A stretch of 64,000 nt of DNA from an uncultured Haloferula sp. (GCA_965652295.1 CBFGTS010000007.1:64001-128000); one strand, 5' to 3'. Numbered from the stretch's first letter, positions 21,039 to 39,787 are shown. The notes: a model not told the origin generated them from the letters alone. Made by a program: numbers and translations.

Positions 21039-21113
21039 TCCGGTGTAGCTCAGCGGTAGAGCGGGTGGCTGTTAACCACTAGGTCGTAGGTTCGAACCCT
21101 ACCGCCGGAGCCA
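21039..21113 (+). tRNA. tRNA-Asn(GTT)
   Basis: Cloverleaf: acceptor TCCGGTG/CGCCGGA, anticodon GTT at 21071-21073, GGTTCGAACCC T-arm, encoded CCA. Confidence 0.97.
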
Positions 21114-21156
21114 ATGAAGGGCGCTGATTCTCAATGAGTCAGCGCCCTTCGCCTTT
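21080..21156 (+). repeat. Left attachment site (tRNA 3' end plus terminator)
   Basis: 76/77 identical to 39711-39787; the mismatch is T21135 vs C39766. Confidence 0.95.
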
Positions 21157-21158
21157 TT
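21116..21158 (+). terminator. Intrinsic terminator after tRNA-Asn
   Basis: gaagggcgctgattc-tcaat-gagtcagcgcccttc stem followed by gccttttt. Confidence 0.8.
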
Positions 21159-21167
21159 CGGGTGGAG

Positions 21168-21193
21168 TCAGACTGAACACTCAGACTGAACGC
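21168..21193. repeat. Tandem TCAGACTGAAC(A/G)C x2; putative integrase arm-type sites, left end
   Basis: 13-bp direct repeat just inside the left att; core ACTGAAC is shared with the right-end repeats. Confidence 0.7.
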
Positions 21194-21251
21194 TTGTGCT
21201 GGCACGGCTGTCCCTTGAAGCACGGTGTCCTCCTGATATGGAAGGAGGAGC

Positions 21252-22013
21252 ATGTCCGACGAAACTTTCAATGCTCTCCAGCTGATTCTTCAATGCCTCG
21301 GTTTGGTGGTTGGGGTGGTGCTCTTCGTTGCCGCGGTGTGGCGCGATGACTTCAAAGCGCGAAGGGTGAAGCCCGAGCTGAAACTCGTTCCAGAGGATAT
21401 CCCTAAAGGAGAGCGAACCACGGTGTACCAGAGGGGGAGTGGATTCCGTAGGAGAGAGAGCTACCGAAGGAGCGAGGAAGAGGAGTCGGAATCTACCGAT
21501 GCCCCAGATGACCGGGATTCGCGCGATGAGAGCCACGATGGTTCATCTTCCAGGTCTGATGGAACCCCCGCGTTTTATTGGCACCTCAAGCTGGTGAACG
21601 AAAGGCCTTGGGTTGTAGCCAAGAACGTGGAGCTTCGGCTACTAAAGCTCTCGGTTCGCGAAGGTAGTGAGAGGACTTCCGAGCGGCCGTTGTCCGGATC
21701 GTTGCCGATGATTCAAAAAGGAGGCGAGCATATCGCCGACGTGGGCTACAAGAGCATCAACTGCGGGCTGGTTCGCCTGGTAGCCGGGTGCGGCCTGCAA
21801 TTGCGGATAGCTGGCCGTATTCCCAATAATCTCCGGCCCCGGCTGTACGATCCAGGATCGATGGAGCTCGTGTTGCAGGCCCAAGGCGACAACGCTGTGA
21901 GCAATACCCTCATCGTCCAGATCGACTGGGACGGCGGATTTCCTGATTGGGATGATGGAGCGGACTGTGTGAGGTTCAATGTCCGAGAGGTTTACGATGG
22001 ATCGTGGATCTGA
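21252..22013 (+). CDS. Membrane-anchored hypothetical protein (element cargo)
   Basis: Strong RBS AAGGAGG, N-terminal TM, acidic/Ser low-complexity insert, beta-rich C-terminal domain. Confidence 0.75.
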   Translation: MSDETFNALQLILQCLGLVVGVVLFVAAVWRDDFKARRVKPELKLVPEDIPKGERTTVYQRGSGFRRRESYRRSEEEESESTDAPDDRDSRDESHDGSSSRSDGTPAFYWHLKLVNERPWVVAKNVELRLLKLSVREGSERTSERPLSGSLPMIQKGGEHIADVGYKSINCGLVRLVAGCGLQLRIAGRIPNNLRPRLYDPGSMELVLQAQGDNAVSNTLIVQIDWDGGFPDWDDGADCVRFNVREVYDGSWI

Positions 22014-22131
22014 GTGCGTTCGCAATCAGGTGGCGGTCCTTGGTCTTGACCTAGGTGACAAAAACCTTCGAATGGTCGAAGTTTTCTCGGCAAGGCACGA
22101 GGTAGCCGACCCTCGTAACCGTTTCGCCTCC

Positions 22132-22476
22132 ATGAATGTCATCAAAATTCTCCGCCTTTTGCCCGTTCTATGGCTGGTGAGCTGCGCGACTTCCAACGTC
22201 ATTTCGTGCGGCCCTGACACCTTCATGGTGACATCGTCGGGAGCTGGTTTCGACACCGGTTCAGTGAGAGAGAATTGCTTTAAAAAGGCGAATGACTTCT
22301 GCGAGGAACGCGACCTGGTCATGATGCCAGTTGCCATCGATGTCCAAGGCGGAGAGCTGGGCAAACGCCCGCCAACAGCTGAACTCACATTTCGCGCTCT
22401 CAGGCAGGGAGATCCAGAGATCGGGCGCCCAAATCTTGAGAAGCCCGATGCCATCATCCGCATCGAATCCCGCTGA
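22132..22476 (+). CDS. Small lipoprotein (element cargo), 114 aa
   Basis: Lipobox LVSC after a short signal peptide; GPDTFMV...KKANDFC pattern. Confidence 0.75.
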   Translation: MNVIKILRLLPVLWLVSCATSNVISCGPDTFMVTSSGAGFDTGSVRENCFKKANDFCEERDLVMMPVAIDVQGGELGKRPPTAELTFRALRQGDPEIGRPNLEKPDAIIRIESR

Positions 22477-22679
22477 GGAAACTTGTCCGAAAAGGTAAGT
22501 CGAGGGAGGAGCTCGGTTGAAAGCCCTGCCCTCGGTCACGAAGGCGGGGCAGGTTTCGAGAGAGCGCGAGGCTGCTCAGAGAGGTGAGACGTAGCCAAAC
22601 GAAGCGTATTCAAGCCGATGAGGCTGTCGACGAGGAATGAGGGGCATGGGTCGCGGAGAGGCTCTCGGATGGCGAATCC

Positions 22680-22717
22680 GTTACGGTTTGTTACGGTTTG
22701 TTACGGTTTGTTACGGT
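22680..22717. repeat. Tandem 10-bp repeat (GTTACGGTTT) x3.8
   Basis: Read directly in the non-coding gap between convergent genes. Confidence 0.9.
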
Positions 22718-23041
22718 GTGGAGCCCCGTACGCCACTGATTTCGAGAGCGGCAGGCAGGGGAGAACGTTCGTTTACGCTCGCCGAGAGAGGCAGAGGGTC
22801 GCGGTGAACCGTCGCGGCACCTCTCACGCAGCCATGGCACCACCTACGAAGGGACGGTACCAGAGACTTCCAAAACGGTGAAGAGGCCGACCTCGGCATG
22901 GTCGGAGGATTCGAGGAGCTTTCGTTGGAGAATTTCGTTCATTGGAGTTGAGGTGGTCGGTTGGAGGCCCCGCCGGCGTGTGCCAGCGGGGCTCTGGATT
23001 CGGGACCACGCACTCCTCCCAGGTGGAGCGTGGTTCCAATT

Positions 23042-23593
23042 TTACTGGGCCTCTCTCATTTTCATGGCGGCCCAATACAGCTCGCCTTCCTTTCGAGCCC
23101 AAAAGGCTTTCAACACGGCAATCTGTTGGAGCTTCAGCACCGTCGTTCCGGCATGGACGGCCATGATTTTCAGGCGATTGAAGGTTCTCGGATTCGAATA
23201 AAGGACGTCCAGGACTGCCAGCTTTCCGTTTCTGAAGTTCACGTTCTCCCGCTCCTTGAGCCAGAGTTTAACGATGCCGCTCCTTCCAGCTTCCCGGAGT
23301 TCGTCGTCATCGCTGAAAAACCCATAGCTGAGAATGGCGAAGTGGTTTTCAACGTCCCGGTCGAAATTCTCGCGACACTCTGGACGCGTAGCGAAATGCT
23401 TCTCAAGATAGTCCTTGATTCGGAAGGGAATCGGAACCTTCGCGACCACGCCGCTCGCTCCGGAATGGAGCGGGCTCACATCAGCACGGTTCCGTCTGGG
23501 AATCTCCACGGTGAGGGTTTCGAGCTTCCGCGGGCTCTTCTTCGGAGTGGTGACGGCCGTGGTGGCGGTGGGAGGTTCTGCGGTGTGATTCAT
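23042..23593 (-). CDS. Hypothetical protein, 183 aa; probable tandem-RHH paralog of 23928-24437
   Basis: IPFRIKDYL and LSYGF match MPSRIADYL and SKYGF of the other gene; both have Thr-rich N-termini. Confidence 0.65.
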   Translation of the reverse strand: MNHTAEPPTATTAVTTPKKSPRKLETLTVEIPRRNRADVSPLHSGASGVVAKVPIPFRIKDYLEKHFATRPECRENFDRDVENHFAILSYGFFSDDDELREAGRSGIVKLWLKERENVNFRNGKLAVLDVLYSNPRTFNRLKIMAVHAGTTVLKLQQIAVLKAFWARKEGELYWAAMKMREAQ

Positions 23594-23631
23594 CTTTGAG
23601 TCGGGTTGTTGGTTTCGGAGGCGGTAGGCGG

Positions 23632-23895
23632 TCAGGGCTGTTGCTGTGGATCCGCCGGAGGCAAGAAGGCGGCCTTGTAGTCGGTGAGGGTGACGTAGTG
23701 GTCGCGGTGGCCGTCGCGGATGATGCGGCACCGTTTGGCGAGCTGTCGCTGAGTGACGCCGGCGAGGTGGCAGGCCACCGGGACGGGAAGGCGGCGGAGA
23801 GCGTCGGGGTCGCCGATAGCCTCGAGCATCCGGTCGGCGACGATTTCGGCGGCTCGTCCGATGATTTCCCGGCGCTCTGACGGTGAGAAGTTCAT
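23632..23895 (-). CDS. Small HTH (Xis/Cro-like) DNA-binding protein
   Basis: LPVPVACHLAGVTQRQLAKR helix-turn-helix pattern followed by a wing-like segment. Confidence 0.6.
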   Translation of the reverse strand: MNFSPSERREIIGRAAEIVADRMLEAIGDPDALRRLPVPVACHLAGVTQRQLAKRCRIIRDGHRDHYVTLTDYKAAFLPPADPQQQP

Positions 23896-23927
23896 GATGG
23901 AGCGATGAGGTGCGGGTTGCTTCCGGA

Positions 23928-24437
23928 TCAGAGTCCAGCCGTTGGAGCATGGTGGGCGTGAAAGCGCTTCAATGATTCAACCCGGTAGGTGAGTGAGGCC
24001 CTCAGTAGGCACTCGATGTCGACGTCGAGAGCTGCGGCGACCTGGTTCATTCTCTTCCAGTCGCGCTCCTTCATCTTCACGGTGAAGGGCACGGAGGGTT
24101 CTCCGCAGAGGTCGGAGGAAATCCGCGCCCGCTGCTGGAGATCCCGGCAAACGAAGGCCTGAGTCTTCCCGCTCTCAAGATCGAGTGCGGCGAGATAGCC
24201 CACATGGGCGGCGTCGAATCCGTATTTCGAAATCACGTGTTCGGACCGACTGAGGAGGTAGTCGGCGATCCGGGAGGGCATGCGGAAATCGATCTTCACC
24301 CACTTCTCAATCACGTCGAATCCGGTGGCTTTGATTCCGGAGCGCGGGCGTTGCCGTGAGGCTGAGTGTTGAACTTTACGAGGCTGGCGAGTGGTGGCGG
24401 TGGTCTCGGTCATCGGTTGAGTTGGCGTGGTTTTCAT
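23928..24437 (-). CDS. Putative tandem ribbon-helix-helix DNA-binding protein, 169 aa
   Basis: WVKIDFRMPSRIADYL and VPFTVKMKERDWKRMNQVAAALDVDIECLLRASL fit RHH patterns. Confidence 0.6.
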   Translation of the reverse strand: MKTTPTQPMTETTATTRQPRKVQHSASRQRPRSGIKATGFDVIEKWVKIDFRMPSRIADYLLSRSEHVISKYGFDAAHVGYLAALDLESGKTQAFVCRDLQQRARISSDLCGEPSVPFTVKMKERDWKRMNQVAAALDVDIECLLRASLTYRVESLKRFHAHHAPTAGL

Positions 24438-24504
24438 TTCGCTAGCAAAGCTAGCGAAAGAAAGATGGAAACGGCAAGAGAAATCGGCTAGCAAAGCTAG
24501 CGAA
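24438..24504. promoter_or_regulatory. Two operator-like sites GCTAGC-AAA-GCTAGCGAA between divergent RHH genes
   Basis: Identical 18-mers at 24441-24458 and 24487-24504; the first extends to the perfect inverted repeat TTCGCTAGC-aaa-GCTAGCGAA. Confidence 0.8.
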
Positions 24505-24674
24505 TGGCGAAGAAGGAAAAGACGATCGGGATGCGGGTCGACACAGAGCTCGATGAGGTGCTCTCGCGTCTCGCCGAGGAAGAGCAGCGAACCCCGGCCG
24601 GCATGGCTCGCGTGCTGGTCATTGAAGCCCTGACGAAAAGGAAGGCATGGCCTCCGAAGGGGCGGAAGAAGTAG
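24504..24674 (+). CDS. CopG/Arc-family ribbon-helix-helix repressor, 56 aa (not in ORF track)
   Basis: Hand translation: MAKKEKTIGMRVDTELDEVLSRLAEEEQRTPAGMARVLVIEALTKRKAWPPKGRKK*. Confidence 0.85.
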   Translation: MAKKEKTIGMRVDTELDEVLSRLAEEEQRTPAGMARVLVIEALTKRKAWPPKGRKK

Positions 24675-24705
24675 CCCCGTCCCGTCCTCCAGAGCAGTGA
24701 GGTCT

Positions 24706-25026
24706 TCATGTCGTGGGCTTCCTCTCTTCCAGCAGTCGTAGAACCTCCGCCTCATCGCCTGCCGGGCATAGGTCGTGGACCTGGCGGAGAAATCGCTTCC
24801 GGTCTCCTGGTAGCGCGGAGAATGCGAAACCGGCTTCCTGCATATCGTCGAGAGCGGCATGGGCGGCCTCGGTGATGTCGGCGCGGGTCGCCCGGGTGAC
24901 GTAGCGCCACCGATCCCCGTCCTTCCAGCCGAAGCGCCAGTAGCTCGGACCGTCGTCGGATTTGCGCCACGGGCTGATGCGAACATGATAGTTGCCCTTT
25001 CTGAGGGTGAAGGGTTTGCGGCTCAT
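24706..25026 (-). CDS. 106-aa protein resembling a stand-alone integrase N-terminal arm-binding domain
   Basis: Basic three-strand-plus-helix pattern YWRFGWKDGDRWRYVTRATRADITEAA; no catalytic domain follows. Confidence 0.55.
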   Translation of the reverse strand: MSRKPFTLRKGNYHVRISPWRKSDDGPSYWRFGWKDGDRWRYVTRATRADITEAAHAALDDMQEAGFAFSALPGDRKRFLRQVHDLCPAGDEAEVLRLLEERKPTT

Positions 25027-25053
25027 TCGTTGGGGTTCGCTCGGGATTGAGGT

Positions 25054-28000
25054 TTATTGGGACCGGTGGCGGAGCAGCTTCCCAGCGCGTTTGCGCACCT
25101 CCTGCGAGGCGTGGGCGGAGGAAAGAGCTTCCAGAAACGCCTCGCGCTGGGATTCGTCCATGGGAGCGAGAATCGAGGCGAGCTTGTCGGCTTTGGCGTC
25201 GCGCTTGGCGCGGCGGACCTTCTTGTCCGGCTTGCCGTCCTCGCGGGTCGATGGGCCGAGGGTGTCGTCGAGGTCACGGGAGAACTTCGAGAAGCGAGCC
25301 TTGAGGAGTTCGATGCGGTCGGCTTCGGAAAGGCTGCCGCCGGCGGTGTTGTAGGCACCCAGGACGCTCTCGCCGAGGTTGGCGGCCTGAGCGGCGACGG
25401 CCGCACCGGGAATGAGGGTGCCCCATGCCTGGACGCTGTCGATCGCCGCGTCGGCACGTTCCTCGACGGTGGCGTCCGCGGCGAAGATGTCGCCGCTGCG
25501 GAATGCCTGGCGACCGGCGCGAACCAGCGGGTTCGGATTCGAATCGAAATACCGCACCTCGCTTTCCTGCCAGCGCTCGGCGAAGTCGGCGGGCAAGGTG
25601 TTCTCGATGATCCATTCGGCCGCATCGCTGTCGAAGGCACCGGCGGCGGTGGCGGCGGCACCCTCTCCGAGCACCGGCACGGAACGAAGGTGCTCGGTGG
25701 AGAGAGCGTAGGCCCACGCCTTCGGATCGGTCATGCGGTCCTTGTAGCGAGCCCACCAGCTCTCTTCCTCGTCATCCTTGCCCTTGGCGGTGGCGGCCCA
25801 CATCGAACCGAGGGCAGTGACCAGCGCCGGCATCACGACCAAACCGGCGAAGGCCTGTTGGGCGGCCATGCCGCGGCCGTAGGTGCCCTTGCCGGTGAGG
25901 AGTTCCCGCACGGCCATGAAGGTGATGGCGGTGTTTTTCCGGCGCTCGGAGATGAACAGGGCGAACGGGAGAGACAGCGGACTCTCGAGCATCATCAGTT
26001 CGAACTCCGATTTGGCAAAGCGGAGAGTCGGTTGGGCCGCCCGGAGCAACACGACATCGACCTTGCGGTCGGCGGCGGCGCGGGCTTGCTCCTCGCTCAA
26101 GCCGTCGGCGAGGGACTGCTTGCGGGTGCGCTCCCAGATGAAGGCGGCGGCCACGGTGTTGGCGCCCGTATCGACGATGTTGATGGCCTCCATTGCCGGC
26201 ATCGCGGCAGCATCCGCCACCGCCATCAGCGGCTTGGCGGTCGGTCCGCGTGACTTGGCAAGCTGGGCCTCGAAGGTCGCGCCACCCTTGAGGCGGCGCT
26301 GGATGGCCGGCGACTTCCAGGCATCTCTGAAGGCCGCGGGATTGGCGATCACGTCACGCATCCCGGCGAGAAGCTCTCCATACGGGACCTCGTAGGTGAC
26401 GTTGGCAACGGCGGAGGTATTCGCCACCAGCGTGGACACGCGGCCACCGAGCACACCGATGGCGAAATTCCTGACGACGCTCTTCACCGCACGCTCGATC
26501 CAGAGCAGGGAGTTCGCTCGCAGGGAGCCTCCCGCCTCGATGCGACGGAAGCGCCGTTGAAGCGCCTCATGGAAGGCGGACCCCATGCGGGCCTTGATGC
26601 TTCCGGAGAGCCTCTCGTCGCGCAGAACCCCGCCCCACTCGCGAAGCGCGGAGACGTGGGAGAGCCAGAAGTTCGTCTGCTGCCGATGGGCGAGGAACAC
26701 GGCGAGCGCGTTGATGTAGTCCGGCGGCGCGGAGTTCGTGACGCGCTGCTTGGTGAAGGAGATCGAACGGCCGGTGTGCTGGATTCCGCCACCGTCGAGC
26801 GCGATTTCCCCGGTGGTGGAGAGGGCGACGTCGTTGCGCACCGGGAAGTATCGCTCGACGAGCCGGAGCCCGATTCCCTTCTCGGTGCGGTGAAGAGCAT
26901 CGATAGCCATCTGATCAGCCGCGAGGTAGTCGGTCATCCATGCGCCGAGTGCCTTCGTCTGGGGCTCGAGGAATGCCTCCAGCTCGGCCATGGTCTCCGC
27001 GTCGTATCCCAGGCCTTCGAGCTTCTCGGCTTGATCCGGCTGGCGCATCGTGAGGTAGAGCTGGAGCGCTTCGAGCTGGGACACCGGCCCGATGCTCTTC
27101 CGCTCGCCCGCTGCCTCGACGGTGGTGACGGGGATCGACCGGCGGCGGACCCTCTCCGGCTCGGGCAGGTCGAGAAAGGCTTCCAGCTCGGTGGCGAGTG
27201 CCTTCACCTGGCGCGCTGAGAGTTCGACCCTCTCGCCGGAGCGGGTGTCGAACCCGCCGGCCTCCCCGTTGACGATGGCCTCCGCGAACTTGACCGGCAC
27301 GGAGATGGTGACGGTCCTGCGTCCCTCGATCTTGGAGACTGGCACGGGCGTCTGCTTGTCATTGCTGGAAAGCTCGTGGAGCCGCTTCGCGAGCCCGTGG
27401 CGAGAACGGGCTCCGAGGATTGCGCGGAGAGCCTGCGAGACCTCTTCGGAGTCCTTCAGGTCCCTCTCCTGTTGGTCGATCTCGGCCGCGGCGAAGTCCC
27501 ACTCCATTTCCTCGACGAGGGTCGACACCTCGGGATCCTCGGAAAGCTCCGCGAGCCGGCGGAAGGTCTGGCTCCCTCCGATCATGGCCCCCATCAAACC
27601 CTCGCCGAGGCGGCGGAGTTTGGATTCATCGGCACGGACGCGGCGGCTGCGGTCTCTGTCCTCAATGGGACGGTCCATCTTGAGGCCCTCACGGAGCTTC
27701 TTCACACGGGCATCCCTCAACTCACGACGAGCGACGAGCACCTCGACCCACTCGCGCCGGCCGTCGGTGTAGACGCCCTGCAGGAAGGCTAGAGCCTCTT
27801 CGAGTCGGGCGGAATCGGCGTTCTGGTAGTCGCCGAAAAGCTCGAGCGCCGCAATACGGCCGTCGAGTTCCTCGATCTGCTCCACGGTGAGGCTCTCGCC
27901 ACCGACGAGGCTTTCATTCAGCGCCACCGCCCACGGGTCCATCACCGACTTCTGTTCGGCGGTGGGGTTGGCGATGCCGGCGTTTTCGAGCATCTGCTGA

Positions 28001-31890: not shown

Positions 31891-31956
31891 GAGAACGAAG
31901 AGGTGTGGGGACGAAGGCAGGGGGCGGAAGGTGAGATGAGCGACGAGACCAGCTCT

Positions 31957-33837
31957 CTACCACCCACGGCGGAAGAGTTTGCTCTCGGCGATGCGGCGGC
32001 GCTCCAAGCCACGCAGGCGCTTCCCGCTGGCATTGCGGTAGAGGAGGATCTTGCTCGCGATTTCCGCCTTGCTGCGGGTGCCACCGGCGAGGAGCTGGCG
32101 AATCTTGCCAGTGTTGAAGTCGAAGCTCGTGAGGGCATCGAGTTCGTGCGGCTCGAACTCGATACCGACCCGTGCGGCCTCGTCTTCGACCCGCTTCCGG
32201 TGCTGGGAGAGTTCGACGTCGAGACGCCGCGCGGCTTCGGCCTTGTCGATGACCTCGCCGGGTTGCGCCTTGGTCCCGTAACCAATGCTCCACTGGCCGT
32301 GGTCCCAATAGGCTTTGCGGTGAAAGCCCTCGGCCTCTCCACCGGCCTCGAACTGCTTCACCATGTCCTTGAGGCTTCCGCCGACTGGCTGATCGGGGGT
32401 GGCGTCTCGCGCGCCGGGCGGCCCGCCGGCTTCTCCCAGCATCTCCGAGAGCGAGCGCCGACGTTCCTCGACAGGCACGGAGCCTCCAGAGAGGACCGAT
32501 CCGGCGATCTCATCCATCGCCACCTTCCGGAACTGCTGATCGAAATCCTTGGCCTCGGGGTTGTCGCGCAACCATTCGGTCATCCGTTCCTCGACCCTCT
32601 CACGACGGCGGAGGATCTCGGTTTCCCGCTCGGCATACTCGAAGGGCGATAGCTCCTCGTCTTCGTCAATCGATCCGAACGCGCCGGCCTTCTGATAGAC
32701 CGCTGAGAGCTTCGAAATCTCCCGCTCGCGGCTCTGATCGCGCGCCTCCTGAAGGTTCTTGCCGTTCCAGGCAGCCGGGTCGAGAGCATGAACACGTTGC
32801 CGGAGCGCACCGGACCCGTCTCGGGCACCCATGGCATACACGACCTGGGCCACTTCGTCGTGAGCCGCCCGGTAGTCATCCAGGTTCATTTCTCCCGACT
32901 TGTAGGCGTCATGGAGTTCGTTGAGCTGGTCGGTGATCGCGAAACGGGATTCGGCATCGACCGGCTGTGCCTGTTGGAAGTTGAACAGCAGCTCATCATG
33001 CAAGGCCTCCTCGATGTAGGGACTCCTCTCCAATTGTCGGCGCAATTCTTCCTCGGTCGAGACTTCCCCGGTCTCAATCGCCGTGGAGATCGCCTTGAGC
33101 TGCTCTTTCTGAAAGGCCTGAACATCCGCCTCAAGCCCACGAACGAGGCGCTCCCGGTCCACCTCGGAAATTCCTGGGGTGTTGGTTACAAAATCTGGTG
33201 TCCTCACTTCTTCCAGAAGAGCCCTCGGGTCTTCCTCCCGACGTTGCGAAAGCTCTCTGAGAGTCGCCATCCGCAGCCCCTCCCGCTGGAGCCGATCCCG
33301 ATCGGCCTCCCCAACAAGTCCAGTCGCGATGCCTCGGCTCACGGCTTGTTCGTACTGATTCAGGTCTCCACGCGACGCATGGTAGTTCAGCTCTCCCGCG
33401 AACTTCGCCTGCGAGTTCTGATATATTTTGCGGGCCGCCAAGCCTTCAAATTGAAGCGTCTTCCGGACTGCCCATCCTTCGAACTCACCAAGGGCCTTTC
33501 CCTGAGCTTCGGGGGAGAGTTCAAGCGTTGCGAGCTGGTTTCGCATCTGGGAGATCATCTGAGCCGAATCCCCCTTCCAATTCTCCGGATCTTGCCGACT
33601 GATCAAGCCGTCCTCAAAACGTGAAGCCTCCATTGAGGCTTGCCGCATGAAGGCAGAGATTTTGCCTCCCTCCTCGGCGACGCGGATTTCCTCGGCAAGC
33701 TGAAAGCCCTTGTCCCCAACGGCAGCAATGGTCTGCCCGAATTGGGCCATGGCCTTGCCTCTGGCCATGGCGACAGAGGGATCGGCTCGCGGCATAGCTG
33801 GGCCCGCGGACAGGTATTGAGTTGGCGGAAGTGGCAT
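31957..33837 (-). CDS. Internal virion protein with C-terminal GH24 lysozyme domain, 626 aa
   Basis: EGFHRKAYWDHGQWSIGYG, DALTSFDFNTG, GLERRRIAESKLF; amphipathic N-terminus GKAMAQFGQTIAAVG. Confidence 0.8.
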   Translation of the reverse strand: MPLPPTQYLSAGPAMPRADPSVAMARGKAMAQFGQTIAAVGDKGFQLAEEIRVAEEGGKISAFMRQASMEASRFEDGLISRQDPENWKGDSAQMISQMRNQLATLELSPEAQGKALGEFEGWAVRKTLQFEGLAARKIYQNSQAKFAGELNYHASRGDLNQYEQAVSRGIATGLVGEADRDRLQREGLRMATLRELSQRREEDPRALLEEVRTPDFVTNTPGISEVDRERLVRGLEADVQAFQKEQLKAISTAIETGEVSTEEELRRQLERSPYIEEALHDELLFNFQQAQPVDAESRFAITDQLNELHDAYKSGEMNLDDYRAAHDEVAQVVYAMGARDGSGALRQRVHALDPAAWNGKNLQEARDQSREREISKLSAVYQKAGAFGSIDEDEELSPFEYAERETEILRRRERVEERMTEWLRDNPEAKDFDQQFRKVAMDEIAGSVLSGGSVPVEERRRSLSEMLGEAGGPPGARDATPDQPVGGSLKDMVKQFEAGGEAEGFHRKAYWDHGQWSIGYGTKAQPGEVIDKAEAARRLDVELSQHRKRVEDEAARVGIEFEPHELDALTSFDFNTGKIRQLLAGGTRSKAEIASKILLYRNASGKRLRGLERRRIAESKLFRRGW

Positions 33838-33839
33838 GG

Positions 33840-34352
33840 TTAGTTGATGGCAGTGGTGGATTTTGGGGAGCGTTTGAGCTTCCCAGAAGAGGTGAGGTAG
33901 CCGGAGGTGGCGGAAGAAACTCCCTGCAGGGCGGTGGCATAACTCTGCGTTCTCAGGGCTGCTGCTTCGTTTTCACCCTGCCAGATGTCCATCTGTGCGC
34001 CTTGAATCAGAGCCCGGTAGCGATTCGAGGCCTCAAAGGACATGTCCTGAATGTCGCGATCCAGCATGGCGGCCGTTTCTCCCAATACCGCCAATGGAGT
34101 ACCCTCCATCGTCAGTCCGCTCGCCGCATTGGCGGCCCGGATTCGCGCAAGTTCGCGGTTGTTCTCTCGGGCTTTGCGGCGGGCATTCTCGGCGACCACT
34201 TTGTTCTCCTGGTCGGCCTGCTGGCGCTGGAGTTCCGAGTTGTAGCGGGCTGAGTTTTCGGCGGCCTTGGCGGCGTTCTGCTGGCCTTGGACGGAGACAG
34301 CCGTACCGGCGAGGGAAACGACAGTGGAGATGCCGATGATCCAGTAGCTCAT
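33840..34352 (-). CDS. T7 gp14-like internal virion (ejection) protein, 170 aa
   Basis: Hydrophobic N-terminus, QQNAAKAAE coiled coil, AASGLTMEGTPLAVLGET motif, Gly/Ser-rich C-terminus. Confidence 0.8.
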   Translation of the reverse strand: MSYWIIGISTVVSLAGTAVSVQGQQNAAKAAENSARYNSELQRQQADQENKVVAENARRKARENNRELARIRAANAASGLTMEGTPLAVLGETAAMLDRDIQDMSFEASNRYRALIQGAQMDIWQGENEAAALRTQSYATALQGVSSATSGYLTSSGKLKRSPKSTTAIN

Positions 34353-34837
34353 GATTGGGGAAGGTTATGTGGCTGGGACGCCCATCCGTGGGAGAGCGCC
34401 GGGTGATTTTCCGGAAGAAGGGAGTTCTGGTGAGGTTCCAGAATTTGCTCCCCGATTTTGAGAATATCGGTCTCCTCGGTGACGTGAAAGGTGGTCCAGA
34501 TGGTGTCGTCGAGAGCGTAAAGCATGCGGCGCGTTCCTGGTTCAGTGACACCGGTGAAAGGCGCGGCGTATTCGACGTGCTCCGTCTCGGAGATGACGCG
34601 GATCCGCCCGGCGGAAATCACGAACGGATGCCGGGTCTTGTGGGTGGCCGAGGTGAGGAGGGCTCCTTTGGGAATGTGGCACTCCCGAATATAGAGACCT
34701 GGAGTGAAACGATGGACGACGTGGATTGCAGCGTGTTCAGCCCCATTGGCGATGCTGTTTGCCATCGCTGCCTCAAGCTCGTCGATCGAGTCTCCCGCCA
34801 CCTTCGATGGCTTCTGGCGTGGATTTAGGGAGTTCAT
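34349..34837 (-). CDS. Phage cupin-like protein, 162 aa
   Basis: HRFTPGLYIRECHIPKG...HKTRH...PGTRRMLYALDDTIWTTFH. Confidence 0.75.
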   Translation of the reverse strand: MNSLNPRQKPSKVAGDSIDELEAAMANSIANGAEHAAIHVVHRFTPGLYIRECHIPKGALLTSATHKTRHPFVISAGRIRVISETEHVEYAAPFTGVTEPGTRRMLYALDDTIWTTFHVTEETDILKIGEQILEPHQNSLLPENHPALSHGWASQPHNLPQS

Positions 34838-35100
34838 GATTTCAGGAATTTCGAGAGTTCTTCCGTCCCCTTGGAAGTCAGGGAATAGATGGTCTTGCCG
34901 CCGGACTTCACGGCCTCCGCCAACCCCTCCGCCAGAAGGTGGTTCTGGAGGCAATTCCAGATGCCTGAGGTGCTGCCGCCGGTGCGTTCGACGAGCTGGG
35001 CGTATGAGACGTCACCTGTGCCGATCTCAAGCAGCACGAGCAGCTCCAGGTCGCTCCAGCGGCGGCGGAACTTCCGTTGGATAATCGATTTCAGTTTCAT
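34834..35100 (-). CDS. Winged-helix DNA-binding protein (ArsR/MarR/PadR-like), 88 aa
   Basis: VSYAQLVERTGGSTSGIWNCL...IYSLTSKG. Confidence 0.75.
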   Translation of the reverse strand: MKLKSIIQRKFRRRWSDLELLVLLEIGTGDVSYAQLVERTGGSTSGIWNCLQNHLLAEGLAEAVKSGGKTIYSLTSKGTEELSKFLKS

Positions 35101-35363
35101 CCGCAGGCGGCGTGAAATTGACGGTGAAACGCGAACATCCTTTCCCGGCTTTCGCGGACGGTTTGAACGAGGTCTTCGGCCTGGGCGTCCGTGTGCTCGA
35201 AAATCGCCGCCTCGAAGCATCTCGGGCACTCGTTCGTCTCGATGCTCCCTAGCTTCAGGATGTCCGGGCGAAGTAGATCCGTTCGGCAAACTGCGAAGGC
35301 CTTCCCGCAGGTCTCGCACTCGTAATATCGGATGGCACCGTGGTAGGAAGGTGGCGTGGTCAT
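35097..35363 (-). CDS. Zinc-ribbon protein, 88 aa
   Basis: CETC...CPRC; ATGA overlaps at both ends. Confidence 0.65.
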   Translation of the reverse strand: MTTPPSYHGAIRYYECETCGKAFAVCRTDLLRPDILKLGSIETNECPRCFEAAIFEHTDAQAEDLVQTVRESRERMFAFHRQFHAACG

Positions 35364-36235
35364 GGTTCGCGGCAGAGGGCTAGAGCTTCCTCGGTGGTGA
35401 GGGTTTCGCAGTCGTCGGGCTCGATCTTTGATGAAATCGGAACTGATTGGGCGCGGGAGTCCCACCAGCTCTTGCCGGTGCTGCGCCACCACGGGCGGAT
35501 TTTCTGAATGGCCTCGAAATATTGGCGGAGAAACTCGCCTCGATCGCGGGGCCAGAGCTTTCGGCCGCGAACGCGGTCGGTTGCCTCATTCCACGCGAGG
35601 ATGGCCGACCAATCGTCCGGGGCATGGTCCTGGAGGTGGGGGAGGATGAGACGGAAGTCGGCTCGCTCAGCCGGAGAGAGAGCCGGGGGAGCATCGGAGA
35701 AGCACCGGCAGAGATGGTCGAGGATCTCGCAGGGCACTCCGAGAGCATCGGCCGACGAAGTCGGGGGGGTGGGGGCACACGTTCCCTCCCCCGTTCCCTT
35801 TGGGTTCCTTTTGGGATCGTAGGCAGAATCCTTCCGGGGTGGGGGGTAGGATTCTTCCGGGGTGGGGGGCTGTTTTCTGCCGGGGGTGGTGACAGAATCC
35901 TTCCGGGGTGCTGTTTTCTTCACCCCGGCAGAATCCTTCCGGGGTGATTTCATGGATTCCGCGCGGTTTTTCAAAAAATCCATTTCCACGCGGTAAACGG
36001 TTGTTCTGCCTGGGCGCTCTCTCAGCACGGAAAGCTCTCCGCTCTCCAACAGAGCGCGGAGGTGGACACGCACGCCACGCTCGCTTTCCAGCCCGCATTT
36101 CAGCGCCATCGTGGTGAGGCTTGGCCAAGCGTTCCCCTCATCATTGGCGCAGTCCGCCAGCGCCAGCAACACGAGCTTCCGTGCCCCTTTCGCGCGACTG
36201 CCGAACCATACTGCCGTGGTGGCGGCCACGCTCAT
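35360..36235 (-). CDS. Phage-type replication initiator (N-terminal HTH_36-like domain), 291 aa
   Basis: KLVLLALADCANDEGNAWPSLTTMALKCG; iterons lie inside the linker-coding region. Confidence 0.85.
   Translation of the reverse strand: MSVAATTAVWFGSRAKGARKLVLLALADCANDEGNAWPSLTTMALKCGLESERGVRVHLRALLESGELSVLRERPGRTTVYRVEMDFLKNRAESMKSPRKDSAGVKKTAPRKDSVTTPGRKQPPTPEESYPPPRKDSAYDPKRNPKGTGEGTCAPTPPTSSADALGVPCEILDHLCRCFSDAPPALSPAERADFRLILPHLQDHAPDDWSAILAWNEATDRVRGRKLWPRDRGEFLRQYFEAIQKIRPWWRSTGKSWWDSRAQSVPISSKIEPDDCETLTTEEALALCREP
35824..35946. repeat. Iterons CAGAATCCTTCCGGGGTG; putative replication origin
   Basis: Exact copies at 35824, 35893 and 35929; variants at 35847 and 35870; the first four are at 23-bp intervals. 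Confidence 0.8.
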
Positions 36236-36501
36236 GATTCGTGTGAATCGGGGGTTGAAAGGAGTCGGTAGCTGGAACGGATCCGGCGGCCTTTCATTCG
36301 CTGCTGGAGGTTCTCTATCCGCCACCCATAGGGTTTCCTCAATTTTGCGACGGAGGAATGAACGGCGCCGTTGCAGGATTTGCGCATGAGCACATCGAGG
36401 CCGACGGGATCGGGATAGGCTTCCTCGAGGAGTTCGAGAACGGTGGCGCATTGGGTTCCTTTATTCGGGCGGCGAGGTTGGTAATCTGATTGTTCGGACA
36501 T
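36232..36501 (-). CDS. Winged-HTH protein, 89 aa
   Basis: TQCATVLELL...AVHSSVAKLRKPYGWRIEN...SSYRL. Confidence 0.7.
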   Translation of the reverse strand: MSEQSDYQPRRPNKGTQCATVLELLEEAYPDPVGLDVLMRKSCNGAVHSSVAKLRKPYGWRIENLQQRMKGRRIRSSYRLLSTPDSHES

Positions 36502-36589
36502 GGTCGTTTGTAGTTGCGACCAGCTCCTGAGAATGGTTCCCTGCGGTTGCGACGGCGGGGGCCGGTTCTCTTCGGAGGCCGGTCTTTTG

Positions 36590-36835
36590 CTATCCGTGCG
36601 TGGCGATTTTGATTTCGGAGGATTTCCCGATTCCGGCTTCAATGAAGCGATCAAGGGACTGGCGACAGATCAGCCGGCGACCTCGGCTTGCTCCCGGAGC
36701 GCGGACTGTCGAGGAGACGATCAAGCGATCGTTGATGTAGTTCCGGAGCGTCCGGATGTTGAGACCGGAATAGATCGCAGCGTCCTGCATCGTGAGCCAG
36801 CGACGCTCCGTCTGGCAGTGTTGGGGGTTAGGCAT
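36590..36835 (-). CDS. Excisionase/AlpA-like HTH protein
   Basis: WLTMQDAAIYSGLNIRTLRNYI...RRLICRQSLDRFI. Confidence 0.85.
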   Translation of the reverse strand: MPNPQHCQTERRWLTMQDAAIYSGLNIRTLRNYINDRLIVSSTVRAPGASRGRRLICRQSLDRFIEAGIGKSSEIKIATHG

Positions 36836-36904
36836 GCGCTAACCATGCCCGTCGATTCCTTCGAAATACCTGAGACGTTCAGAGATGAACTCTCATGTGT
36901 TGAA

Positions 36905-37750
36905 TCACTGGGAAAGCGACTTCACCTCGTTGCCCAGCGTCACAATAAATCCCCGATCCATCTTCCTGTTGTGATTGGGGGGGCCTTCGTATCCAATGAG
37001 CTTGAAAGCCTTGGTGTAGGGCGCTTGATCGTCGGTTGCCGGCATTTTGTCCGGATATGCGGTCTCAAGAAACACCTTGAATTCGGCCTTCGTTGGAAGC
37101 CGGCGGAGGCGGTCCTCAAGCCACGGGACCCAGCGTAGGACCTCAGCGGCGATGCGCATGTGATGGGGCGGAGCGATCTCATCCGCGGCGCGAATGATCC
37201 GAAGGGTGGAACTCAGGGCCTCCATGCGAGGAACGTCCAAGCAAAAGACTGCTCGGAGCATCATGGCTTCCATTATTCCTCGGGCGAGGATCCTCACGCC
37301 TTGATCCCGCTTCGTATTTTTGGGGCCTCTCGGCGAAAGGATCTCTGGATAGAGGAAGGCATCCAGTACCGGGAGCCACTCCGGCATGTGGGGTGAGAAG
37401 GTTCCCTTTTTTCCGGTGGCTGAGAGTGTCACGTATGCGAGACGCCGCCGCACTCGCTCGATGTCTTTGCAGCGCTGAGCCGAATCCTCTTTTCTGAACG
37501 CCTCAACAATCTTGTTTGCCAGCTCGTTGCGACTGAGGGCGGCGGCTTCATTGACCACTCCGCCCGTGAGGAGCCGGAACGCGAAGTAGGAAATCAGCTC
37601 GGGGCTCGGTATCGGGAGCGATCCATCGTGAAGCCAATCGTTGAGAAGAATCTCCGCGGCACGGGGGTGATTGACGAAGCTCTCCACCTCCTGAAGGAGC
37701 TTTTGCCCCTGGTCGGTGAGGGTGGAATCGAAAGAGAGCTGGGCCTTCAT
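36905..37750 (-). CDS. Hypothetical protein, 281 aa
   Basis: Open frame starting 7 nt after the hicB stop; no motif recognised. Confidence 0.7.
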   Translation of the reverse strand: MKAQLSFDSTLTDQGQKLLQEVESFVNHPRAAEILLNDWLHDGSLPIPSPELISYFAFRLLTGGVVNEAAALSRNELANKIVEAFRKEDSAQRCKDIERVRRRLAYVTLSATGKKGTFSPHMPEWLPVLDAFLYPEILSPRGPKNTKRDQGVRILARGIMEAMMLRAVFCLDVPRMEALSSTLRIIRAADEIAPPHHMRIAAEVLRWVPWLEDRLRRLPTKAEFKVFLETAYPDKMPATDDQAPYTKAFKLIGYEGPPNHNRKMDRGFIVTLGNEVKSLSQ

Positions 37751-37757
37751 CGAAAGC

Positions 37758-38180
37758 TCAAGCGAGCGCTTTGCGGACGCTCCTAGGATCGGAGGCGGCG
37801 AGACGGAGGAGAGTGCGGGCAGCCCCGCTGGGCCGGGACACGTGTTGTTCCCACTTGTGGAGGGTGCGCACGCTCACGTTGAGCAGCCGGGCGAATTCTG
37901 CTTGGGAAAGCCCCATGGCTTTGCGGGTGAGGACCGGGTCCGGGTCGGTCGGTGCGTTGGCCGGAGGTTCAGGGAGCTTGAGCCCTGCTTCGTCCCATTG
38001 CGCCACCGTCTCCTCTGCGAGCCGGTTGAGGGCTCTGAAGACTTCGACCGGATCGTCTCCATGGTCGCAATCGCCGCAGAGACCTTCGATGCTGCCAATG
38101 AAAGCTCCATCCTCGTCGCTCCAACGGACGGACTTCGGGTAGGCGGCGGCGCGTTGCCGGATTTCAGGGGTGATCTTCAT
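37758..38180 (-). CDS. hicB: HicB-like antitoxin with C-terminal XRE HTH
   Basis: WSDEDGAFIGSIEGLCGDCDHGDDPVEV plus GLSQAEFARLLNVSVRTLHKWEQ; ATGA overlap with hicA. Confidence 0.85.
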   Translation of the reverse strand: MKITPEIRQRAAAYPKSVRWSDEDGAFIGSIEGLCGDCDHGDDPVEVFRALNRLAEETVAQWDEAGLKLPEPPANAPTDPDPVLTRKAMGLSQAEFARLLNVSVRTLHKWEQHVSRPSGAARTLLRLAASDPRSVRKALA

Positions 38181-38377
38181 GGCTTGGTTTCTTCGATCTT
38201 CTGTTTCACCTGCCGCTCCAGGTAGGTCTTCGCGTCATCGCCATCCCGGCCTGGGATGATCATGACGGTCCGCCCTTGGTTGGCTTCGAACTTGCGGTGG
38301 CTTCCTTTTCCCCCGGGGACGTGCTGGAAGCCCGCCTTGCGGAGGTCTTTGATGAGATCGCGGATCTTGCGTGGCAT
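38177..38377 (-). CDS. hicA: HicA mRNA-interferase toxin
   Basis: 66 aa, KAGF...GKGSHRKF motif. Confidence 0.9.
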   Translation of the reverse strand: MPRKIRDLIKDLRKAGFQHVPGGKGSHRKFEANQGRTVMIIPGRDGDDAKTYLERQVKQKIEETKP

Positions 38378-38416
38378 GGGTACTATGCCCTAAATGGGCA
38401 GGGTTTCAAGAGGGAA

Positions 38417-39604
38417 TCAGAAGGAAGGGAGGGCGGCGATGGCGCGATCGAGGGCCTCGTCGTGGTGGGTGTAGCGGCCATGCACGCCGGCGCTGCTGTG
38501 TCCGGTGAGGCGCTGGCGCACGTCGGCGTGAATGTCGGCCTCGGCGAGCCAGGAGGCGAAGCTATGGCGGAGGCTGTGAAAGCTCCGGCGTTTTACCACG
38601 TCGCCGGCCTCGGTGATTTCCCGCGCTACCCCGGCCCGCTCCATGAGTCGGGTGAATTGGGTGGAAAGGGTGCCGGTTTTTGTCCCCTTCAGGGAGGGGA
38701 AGAAAGCTCCCTCGCGTTCTCCGATCCATGCGAGGCAAGGGGGTGTGAGGGGGACCGTGAGGGTCTTCCGGCTCCGCTTCGTCTTCTCAGGGCGGATCAC
38801 CAGCCGGGAGCCCTCGAGGTGCTCTCGTCCGAGTCGGATCACGTCGCCAAGCCGCAGACCAGTGTGGGCAGCGATGAGGATCACACCGCGCCATTCGTCG
38901 GACGTGCCGGGATGATCGAGCATGGCGCGGACCTCCTGAGTGGTGAAAGGGGCGCGTTCGGTGCTGTCGTCGGTGGGAAGGGGGCGGATACCTTCCGCAG
39001 CGTTGGCCTTGGCGAGTCCCGCATCGACCGCGTCGCGGAGGGCCCGGCGGAGGCACCGGAGGTCAAGGTTGGCGGTGGCGGCTGTGACGGTGCGGCCGCT
39101 GCCCTTCACCTTGGTCTTCACGATCTTGCCGATGGCCTTCTCAATGTCCGCCTGTTTGAGGTCTCCGACGGCGCTGGCGGCGAGCTTCGGACCGAGAGCG
39201 GCCACGATGCGGCGTTCCATGTCCTTATAGACCCGGAGGGTGCTCTCGGAGACGTGCGGGGCCTGGCGTTTCACCCAGCCGGCGAGGTGTTCCGCGAGGG
39301 TGACGTCCACAAAATCCGGGTTCGCCACCTTGTGGAGCTTTCGGATGAGTTCCTCAGCCCGGGCAAGGGTGAGTTCGCCGGCCGCGGCTTCCCGGGTGGC
39401 GGCATCCACTACCGCGGCAAAGGCCTTGGGGAGGTGGGAGTTGCTCTTCCGCTTCTCGCGCTCCTTCGCCTCGAAGTCGGCAGCGATCTCGCGGGCCTCA
39501 CGCTTCTTGGGTGTCCTGGTCGACCTCGAAATCCGCTTCCCGTCGGCATCGATGAAGCGGGCGAACCAGTTCGGGTTGTCGGGATCTCGGTAGAGGGTAG
39601 CCAT
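38417..39604 (-). CDS. int: Tyrosine integrase, 395 aa
   Basis: Catalytic R (GLRLGD), K, HSLRH, GHS and Y all present; N-terminal arm domain; adjacent to the att site. Confidence 0.95.
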   Translation of the reverse strand: MATLYRDPDNPNWFARFIDADGKRISRSTRTPKKREAREIAADFEAKEREKRKSNSHLPKAFAAVVDAATREAAAGELTLARAEELIRKLHKVANPDFVDVTLAEHLAGWVKRQAPHVSESTLRVYKDMERRIVAALGPKLAASAVGDLKQADIEKAIGKIVKTKVKGSGRTVTAATANLDLRCLRRALRDAVDAGLAKANAAEGIRPLPTDDSTERAPFTTQEVRAMLDHPGTSDEWRGVILIAAHTGLRLGDVIRLGREHLEGSRLVIRPEKTKRSRKTLTVPLTPPCLAWIGEREGAFFPSLKGTKTGTLSTQFTRLMERAGVAREITEAGDVVKRRSFHSLRHSFASWLAEADIHADVRQRLTGHSSAGVHGRYTHHDEALDRAIAALPSF

Positions 39605-39616
39605 CGGAGCGGGGCT

Positions 39617-39672
39617 GACTGAACACGATACTGAACAGACTGAACAGGAAAGCACGGGAAAAGTGTTCAGTT
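39617..39672. repeat. ACTGAACA x3 direct plus one inverted copy; putative arm-type sites, right end
   Basis: Copies at 39618, 39630 and 39639; inverted GTGTTCAGTT at 39663-39672. Confidence 0.7.
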
Positions 39673-39710
39673 GGCCTAGAATCCATTGCGGCTCTAAGGC
39701 TGTGGTGTAA

Positions 39711-39787
39711 TAGGTCGTAGGTTCGAACCCTACCGCCGGAGCCAATGAAGGGCGCTGATTCTCAACGAGTCAGCGCCCTTCGCCTTT
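39711..39787 (+). repeat. Right attachment site (duplicated tRNA-Asn 3' end plus terminator)
   Basis: 76/77 identity to 21080-21156. Confidence 0.95.

Follow-up and report, generated by a model that had tools for sequence, protein, structure and literature searches.

An integrative element of 18.6 kb occupies a tRNA-Asn gene in a 64,000-nt stretch of DNA from an uncultured Haloferula sp. (GCA_965652295.1, CBFGTS010000007.1:64001-128000; the whole stretch is referred to as the window). Its genes and those of its relatives suggest, with moderate confidence, an integrative satellite of the host's temperate short-tailed phages that resembles the phage-inducible chromosomal islands (PICIs) and carries its own internal virion proteins. 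The element is probably of the satellite type and active. It belongs to a little-characterised kind with one experimentally mobilised member, EcCIMP1; new here are the phylum, probably Verrucomicrobiota going by the source name of one homologue, and a cassette consisting of a gp14-type protein and a giant, probably polyvalent protein. The first-pass annotation of the window had proposed a candidate new type of satellite. This overstates the case, since the layout is already known from EcCIMP1, whose ejection cassette is of the P22 type.

The element is bounded by the following features.

21039..21113, plus strand: tRNA-Asn(GTT), the integration target (ARAGORN)
21067..21156: attL repeat with an identical 55-nt core at 21080-21134 (direct repeat and contig mapping)
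39698..39787: attR repeat (direct repeat and contig mapping)

The 3' part of the tRNA gene is duplicated as the attachment (att) site. The direct repeat comprises 90 nt with 92% identity between both copies, and the identical core of 55 nt starts at 21080 and 39711, respectively. The spacing of 18,631 bp that had been read from the sequence at first pass is therefore correct. The integrase at one end of the 18.6-kb element and the flanking att repeats are traits of PICIs. The integrase gene, the HicAB pair, the HTH_17 gene, the initiator gene and the four-gene block described below are all located on the minus strand.

Contigs of four public runs were mapped onto the element. One contig from an independent soil study joins position 21079 to 39711 and skips exactly 18,631 bp; it represents the empty site. 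In the same study, the depth of the flank is about twice that of the element. The soil copies of the element are 3–6% diverged, whereas the flank differs by 0.3%. Differences in the giant gene at 26322-26392 lie mostly at third codon positions, according to the listed positions, and the variant contigs span the junction of the replication module and the ejection block without extra genes. The insertion is polymorphic in nature and the empty site is precise. These data also bear on the very improbable explanation that a phage or satellite contig was misjoined into a metagenome-assembled chromosome. The genome does derive from a metagenome, and independent contigs from the likely source run end at each of the two att repeats. 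Such breaks are, however, expected at a repeat of 55 nt, and in the likely source run the depths of flank and element are similar (14–15, 12.4 and 12). Furthermore, the att repeat copies the 3' end of the tRNA gene as in site-specific integration, which argues against a misassembled insertion, and the empty-site contig of the other study skips the exact distance from repeat to repeat.

The right part of the element contains the integrase, regulators and the replication module.

38417..39745, minus strand: tyrosine integrase (PF00589, 3e-17; phrog_1, 2e-55)
38177..38377, minus strand: HicA toxin (PF07927, 5e-12)
37758..38180, minus strand: helix-turn-helix antitoxin of the HicB type, partner of HicA (Pfam/PHROG)
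36905..37750, minus strand: 281-aa protein, function without assignment (Pfam/PHROG scans)
36590..36835, minus strand: 81-aa HTH_17 protein of the AlpA/Xis type (27.5 bits, cutoff 27)
35360..36451, minus strand: lambda-O-like replication initiator (phrog_391, 4e-21)
34834..35319, minus strand: 161-aa open reading frame (ORF), no family match

The R..HxxR..H..Y motifs are readable in the translation of the integrase, which agrees with the catalytic residues reported at first pass. The first ~46 residues of this ORF are a translated fragment of the att/tRNA-like sequence, and the true start is probably the next Met after this fragment. The HicAB pair is supported too, HicA by its Pfam match and HicB as the adjoining partner. 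For the 281-aa protein, an Atlas search was uninformative. The gene of the HTH_17 protein, whose score is barely over the cutoff, is parted from the integrase gene by HicAB and the 281-aa gene; it may correspond to the AlpA-family regulator that PICIs carry in the module next to the integrase. Homologues are present in the small elements G014 and G757 (handles of genomes introduced below). Four iterons of 20 nt each lie at 35822-35946 within the initiator gene. Both the initiator and the iterons had been proposed from the sequence and are retained. An own initiator with an origin is a further trait of PICIs; here it consists of an O-like protein and iterons, and the family differs from the primase-rep of PICIs. 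The real gene in the 161-aa ORF is probably limited to the C-terminal ~90 aa, which are winged-helix-like by eye.

Next to the replication module, four internal-virion genes form a block of 9.9 kb (25054-34954) that accounts for about half of the element.

34349..34954, minus strand: 201-aa small phage protein, cupin-like by eye (phrog_12032, 5e-32)
33840..34352, minus strand: 170-aa internal virion protein of the T7 gp14 family (PF24072, 29.4 bits, cutoff 27; phrog_418, 5e-15)
31957..33837, minus strand: 626-aa protein in the gp15 position with a C-terminal GH24 phage lysozyme domain, aa 501-618 (Pfam/PHROG)
25054..31890, minus strand: 2278-aa giant protein, uninterrupted ORF, in the gp16 position of full prophages (gene order of relatives)

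Homologues of the 201-aa protein are found in 62 phage records. In Vibrio phage 234P9, the gene annotated as 'DNA ejection' is immediately preceded by the homologue, a small gene, which places the 201-aa gene in the ejection block. An assignment as a tail gene, suggested by the label 'short tail fiber' of phrog_12032, was rejected for the same reason. In the Atlas, one neighbour cluster of this protein has AraC_binding in 11% of its members.

The giant has no Pfam or PHROG match of its own and yields marginal matches only in named phages. It lacks ~290 residues that are found in its nearest relative. In its homologues, the middle part is variable and contains LPD3, LPD23, RadC-JAB, ART-PolyVal or MuF_C domains. 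The protein is probably of the 'large polyvalent protein' type and not recognisably T7 gp16. The AlphaFold model of the conserved C-terminal 779 residues is of moderate quality, with a predicted local distance difference test (pLDDT) value of 68.6 and a predicted template-modelling (pTM) score of 0.38. Comparison of this model with BFVD gave 50 matches at E <= 0.001, with low TM-scores, to C-terminal pieces of 'polyvalent' phage proteins, and Foldseek gave no usable match in the PDB. Profile searches of the PDB with the giant, the gp14-like and the gp15-like proteins returned nothing usable either, and no family, PDB-sequence or fold match indicates gp15/gp16 homology of the 626-aa protein and the giant. 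A scan of IMG/VR with the C-terminal half of the giant revealed no relative. Gene order makes the giant the internal protein in the gp16 position, because in full prophages it comes after the gp14-like and gp15-position genes. The ~9.8 kb of podovirus-type internal virion genes announced at first pass are thus supported in part: the gp14 family (PF24072) and the position in the virion module hold, whereas the resemblance of the giant to T7 gp16 does not.

The composition of the block may vary. In a soil variant, 552 other letters take the place of 33341-34880, a stretch that comprises most of the 201-aa gene, the whole gp14-like gene and the N-terminus of the gp15-position protein. The gp14-like gene may thus be missing from some copies of the element; the small elements G757 and G033 are without it.

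The ORFs of the element were scanned with the Pfam and PHROG families. No match to capsid, portal, terminase, tail-tube or lysis-cassette families was found among them, and the absence of a portal, a large terminase and a capsid noted earlier is confirmed. In lacking capsid, portal, large terminase, tail and lysis genes, the element again corresponds to PICIs. No gene for the redirection of packaging (small terminase subunit TerS, Rpp, Ppi or Cpm) is present in the window copy, and no own capsid, portal or head-maturation genes, the hallmark of cf-PICIs, were found in the same scans. Hallmark genes of P4-like satellites, such as sid, psu and delta, and core genes of PLE and PICMI did not appear in these general scans, which included no dedicated profiles for them. 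A relaxase, a coupling protein or another conjugation gene was likewise not found among the element ORFs.

Homologues of the giant were detected in 10 of 61 related genomes, in 35 of 401 genomes of a phylum sample and in 52 of 401 genomes of an order sample. Altogether 46 contexts were retrieved and scanned with PHROGs and with profiles derived from the first full prophages. In 31 of these, head or tail genes lie beside the giant; the clearest full prophages are G054, G050, G060 and G724. Their gene order is TerS, TerL (large terminase subunit), major capsid, tail tube A and B, small protein, gp14-like, gp15-position and giant, followed either by portal and scaffold or by a T7-type tail fibre and lysis genes. 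Eight contexts, including the window element, represent intact small elements in which the giant has an integrase and/or replication genes as neighbours and head and tail genes are absent (G000, which is the window, G023, G014, G033, G039, G757, G519 and the metagenome locus L103). One further small element is degraded (G678) and six contexts could not be assigned to a class. An architecture of integrase, replication and ejection genes without head genes, whose recurrence in other genomes the first-pass annotation had called for, is therefore found repeatedly. Nor does the window element look like a one-off deletion of a full phage at the same site, as no close relative with a head/tail block was seen at that att site and the layout is recurrent. 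For five small elements, the boundaries are given by direct repeats.

G000 (window): 18.6 kb, tRNA-Asn
G014: 17.8 kb, tRNA-Ser
G757: 18.1 kb, tRNA-Ala
G023: 27.7 kb, tRNA-Tyr
G033: 12.9 kb, 61-nt repeat, tRNA not found there

The small elements use different tRNAs and different integrases. Four of the eight encode a small terminase without a large one (PF03592 over the cutoff in G757 and G039, a phrog_51 match in G023 and L103). Backbone genes are common to small elements whose giants are only ~25% identical. The O-like initiator is common to the window element and G033 (39.5% identity), and the initiator profile has no match in any full-prophage context. A 106-aa protein is encoded directly downstream of the giant in the window (24706..25026, minus strand; assigned by homologues in relatives). 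Homologues at the same position are found only in the small elements G033 (50% identity) and G014 (42% identity).

One candidate, G460, was rejected as a small element and placed in the phage class, since PHROGs identify recombination genes upstream and a portal downstream of its giant. An alignment-based scan of metagenomes gave only four loci, of which L103 represents a small element; the other three (L101, L102 and L104) are fragments of full phages.

The distribution of these genes bears on whether the element is packaged at all. In an improbable alternative, it is a non-packaged integrative element that uses the giant/lysozyme module for another purpose, such as crossing of the envelope or anti-defence in the resident cell, and spreads in another way. 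In its favour, no helper, pac/cos site or terminase gene was found for the window copy, and giant polyvalent proteins reportedly occur in conjugative elements too. It is opposed by the lack of a relaxase, a coupling protein and conjugation genes in the Pfam and PHROG scans. Moreover, all classified homologues of the block belong either to the virion module of a podophage or to a small element of this type, relatives carry small terminases, and in phages the gp14-like and the cupin-like gene are part of the virion module.

A more serious question is whether the element is a decaying remnant, i.e. a podophage prophage that lost its head, tail and lysis genes and whose ejection block survives for lack of time. 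This explanation is considered fairly unlikely, even though the small layout can be derived from the full-prophage order by one or two deletions. Selection is informative here. Between the giants of the window element and of G023, the nearest small element and a member of the same genus, the non-synonymous divergence (dN) is 0.18 and the synonymous divergence (dS) is 0.88, which corresponds to a dN/dS of 0.20; in each of seven segments of 300 codons, the ratio is in the range of 0.10–0.35. For the gp15-position gene and the gp14-like gene, the ratios are 0.26 and 0.47, respectively. The ejection block is under purifying selection, and the relaxed selection that the first-pass annotation had named as a sign against a functional element is not observed. 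Decay is hard to reconcile with a dN/dS of this size at such a dS between two small elements, with a third small element branching outside of them.

In the tree of 38 giants, computed from 513 columns of the conserved C-terminal part, G000, G023 and G757 form a clade that consists of small elements only (SH-aLRT 100), and G757 branches outside G000 and G023. The giants of the remaining small elements are scattered among those of full phages, and the giant of G033 is sister to that of the full prophage G009. The latter two observations are compatible with a remnant, as are the visible degradation of G678 and the absence of a resident helper from the genome. A remnant, on the other hand, would require the same loss at least 3–5 times, each with the same junction in which the replication module directly precedes the ejection block. 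The eight giants of the intact small elements are all intact ORFs (2045–3001 aa). Different tRNAs and integrases indicate movement as small elements, and a small terminase is retained without the large one. Backbone genes are shared, and 106-aa homologues and matches to the O-like replication profile occur only in small elements. Finally, EcCIMP1 has been mobilised with the same layout, so the layout of the small elements can function. Shared backbones with unrelated cassettes fit an exchange of cassettes with phages or helpers; repeated reduction of prophages fits them as well.

Several observations weigh against a satellite with its own ejection cassette. The giants of the small elements do not form one clade, and the tree contains five label changes (with G460 reclassified). 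Constraining the seven small elements to one clade lowers the log-likelihood by 380 units and is rejected (p-AU 1.7e-5), with the caveat that this grouping was chosen once the tree had been seen. The related genomes are kin and not independent samples, the gp15 and gp16 assignments follow from gene position and not from a sequence or fold match to T7, and the short side of the empty-site joint comprises only 24 unique letters. A joint of the circular form did not appear among the mapped contigs, a type of data that cannot reveal it. G678, where 15.9 kb lie between 16-nt repeats at a tRNA-Ala gene (L095/L096, C3), has a giant in pieces and a truncated gp15-like gene; it is evidence that such elements do decay. 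The helper is a further difficulty. The assembly (98% complete, 35 contigs) was searched with PHROG profiles, purpose-built profiles and tblastn, and no portal, capsid, tail-tube, scaffold, TerL or TerS gene of the relevant phage group was found; the same purpose-built profiles did recover these genes in related prophages. The podoprophage that the first-pass annotation suggested looking for elsewhere in this genome was thus not found. A second giant locus was seen in no genome that carries a small element. Additionally, a small terminase was not detected in the window copy (best E value 0.34), its left arm included.

For a satellite that carries its own internal proteins, the following course can be proposed. 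An infecting or induced helper podophage of ~38–39 kb would trigger excision and replication by the initiator and the iterons. The terminase of the helper would then package the satellite DNA. Several relatives encode a small terminase of their own that presumably redirects the helper terminase, and packaging of the window copy might depend on a shared pac site or an undefined small protein. Capsids and tails of the helper would be used. The internal proteins of the satellite would be loaded into helper particles. At the next infection, they would form a conduit spanning the envelope and be injected together with the DNA of the satellite. The full prophage G050 measures 37,723 bp between its 95-nt repeats, about twice 18.6 kb. 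A unit of about half the helper genome would offer the simple possibility of two copies per normal head. With units of 18 kb (one half) and 12.9 kb (one third) compared to 37.7 kb, concatemers could fill a normal head, a numerical fit that is based on few cases. EcCIMP1 has about half of the size that a P22-like helper presumably has.

The left arm of the element contains the remaining features.

21252..22476, plus strand: two cargo ORFs, 253 aa with an N-terminal hydrophobic helix and 165 aa with a lipoprotein-like leader (by eye), no family match
22680..22719: tandem repeat of four 10-nt units, GTTACGGTTT (repeat scan)
23042..24470, minus strand: small accessory ORFs (ORF listing)

The region 21156-24700 is poorly defined, with long ORFs whose Arg/Pro-rich heads resemble wrong-frame extensions. 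The two cargo ORFs are found at the end next to the tRNA gene, where the G+C content is lower (0.57). They are moron-like cargo, possibly with exclusion functions. The array of GTTACGGTTT may be an array of binding sites or a pac-like site; in variants of two soil runs, the stretch 22699-22881 is swapped for 28 other nt. The ORFs 23042-23590 and 23928-24470 (~180 aa each) have similar Thr/Pro-rich N-termini by eye and no family match; they may be paralogues. Between them, an 87-aa ORF (23632-23895, minus strand) has homologues in the small elements G023 and G014. PADLOC identified no defence system in the cargo of the window element and of G023 and gave weak partial matches only. The larger G023 element (27.7 kb) contains ~11 kb of additional small ORFs, almost without family matches, between the tRNA-Tyr and TerS-like genes.

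A few contexts of the giant deviate from the two layouts. In G145 (L052/L053) and G142 (L060/L061), an integrase gene lies directly beside tail-tube A; the gp15-like gene and the giant come next, and recombination genes are located further downstream. Both giants are nearly identical to those of the full prophages G264 and G443. Their layout is either another permutation of a prophage or a fresh deletion. In G105 (L058/L059), the giant homologue has secretin-like genes on one side and a sigma factor/kinase pair on the other; a second large ORF of 3534 aa is located upstream, and no phage genes were recognised nearby. The longest contigs with giant homologues (P0002-P0036) cluster at 17–19.5 kb (9 of 36) and at 36–43 kb (9 of 36). 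As a hint only, these clusters may correspond to unit-length small elements and full phages; L104 (18.8 kb) is a fragment of a full phage.

If confirmed, the satellite with its own internal proteins would imply that the internal cargo of a phage particle is contested between helper and satellite. This would bear on DNA entry, on anti-defence proteins and on the host range of transduced DNA, and also on the question of why giant 'polyvalent' proteins evolve as swappable cassettes. The detection of satellites would be affected as well, because present finders rate such elements as incomplete. Satellites would furthermore be extended to soil Verrucomicrobiota.

Satellites are generally portrayed as elements that steal capsids, terminases or tails or that remodel them. 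In the literature searched, no satellite is described as carrying ejection proteins, and none of the P4-like satellites, cf-PICIs, PLE, PICMI and VEIMEs is reported to do so. These families resemble the window element, as interpreted here, in being integrase-bearing, helper-dependent islands without most virion genes. The cf-PICIs encode capsids, whereas the window element does not. VEIMEs are much smaller than the window element. According to the published account, marine VEIMEs are packaged as concatemers in normal-sized heads and encode no major capsid genes (PMC9618062).

In overall order, the window element resembles Gram-negative PICIs, in which integrase, regulator (a candidate one in the window element), replication genes, a 'morphogenesis slot' and accessory genes follow each other. 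Size class and integration into tRNA genes are also comparable, and Gram-negative PICIs encode small terminases, as do relatives of the window element. The differences are that no Rpp, Ppi or capsid-size genes were found in the window element, that its initiator belongs to a different family and that its slot holds ejection proteins.

The block itself is comparable to T7 gp14/gp15/gp16, with a gp14 family match over the Pfam cutoff and a cell-wall hydrolase domain within the block. The order in the full prophages is T7-like as well (tail tube, small protein, gp14-like, gp15-position, giant, tail fibre). The hydrolase of T7 is a transglycosylase at the N-terminus of gp16, whereas in the window element the gp15-position protein ends in a GH24 lysozyme, and neither sequence nor fold links the giant to T7 gp16. 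The giant may have its counterparts in the large polyvalent proteins of phages and also of conjugative elements, which are said to have been described by Iyer, Burroughs, Anand, de Souza and Aravind in 2017. Its homologues carry LPD/effector domains, and the window giant shows none in Pfam.

EcCIMP1 is a 19,963-bp island at a tRNA-Thr gene of E. coli MP1 (Pick, Stadel & Raivio, ISME J 2025, PMC11773190). According to that paper, excision and circularisation occur only on induction of the podophage Kapi1, which transduces EcCIMP1 at low frequency (PMC11773190). The authors describe no identifiable capsid or terminase genes and regard three coding sequences downstream of the primase, 'similar to DNA transfer proteins', as packaging candidates rather than an ejection apparatus; satellite finders score the island as incomplete (PMC11773190). 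Inspection of the RefSeq record with PHROGs gave the order int, AlpA, primase, phrog_651, phrog_598, phrog_917 and phrog_770. The cassette is a complete P22-type cassette with phrog_598 ('DNA ejection'), phrog_917 ('released from the phage upon host infection') and phrog_770 ('DNA transfer protein' with a transglycosylase). Like the window element, EcCIMP1 comprises ~20 kb at a tRNA site, encodes an integrase and an AlpA-type regulator (a candidate one in the window element) and has no capsid, terminase or tail genes. The layouts agree gene for gene in kind: the replication gene directly precedes genes for a small head-module protein, for two ejection proteins and for a large protein, with a peptidoglycan hydrolase domain in the cassette, and accessory genes come last. 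The cassettes differ, being of the P22 type in EcCIMP1 (phrog_651/598/917/770) and composed of a gp14-type protein and a probably polyvalent giant in the window element, and a primase-helicase takes the place of the O-like initiator. The two elements belong to different phyla and have no detectable sequence relation. Mobilisation of EcCIMP1 was shown experimentally, whereas the window element is known from genes and contigs.

As a tentative generalisation, which is conceivable although rather doubtful at present, satellites with ejection cassettes might form a class across phyla, represented by EcCIMP1 with the P22 type and by the Verrucomicrobiota elements with gp14/gp15 and the giant. Their defining cargo would be injected head proteins. 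A lasting backbone of integrase, AlpA-type HTH, replication and small accessory genes would be combined with a cassette that is exchanged according to the current helper lineage, and the satellite proteins would replace those of the helper, either serving the satellite DNA in cis or spoiling helper progeny. Units of one half or one third of the helper length would fill an unmodified head.

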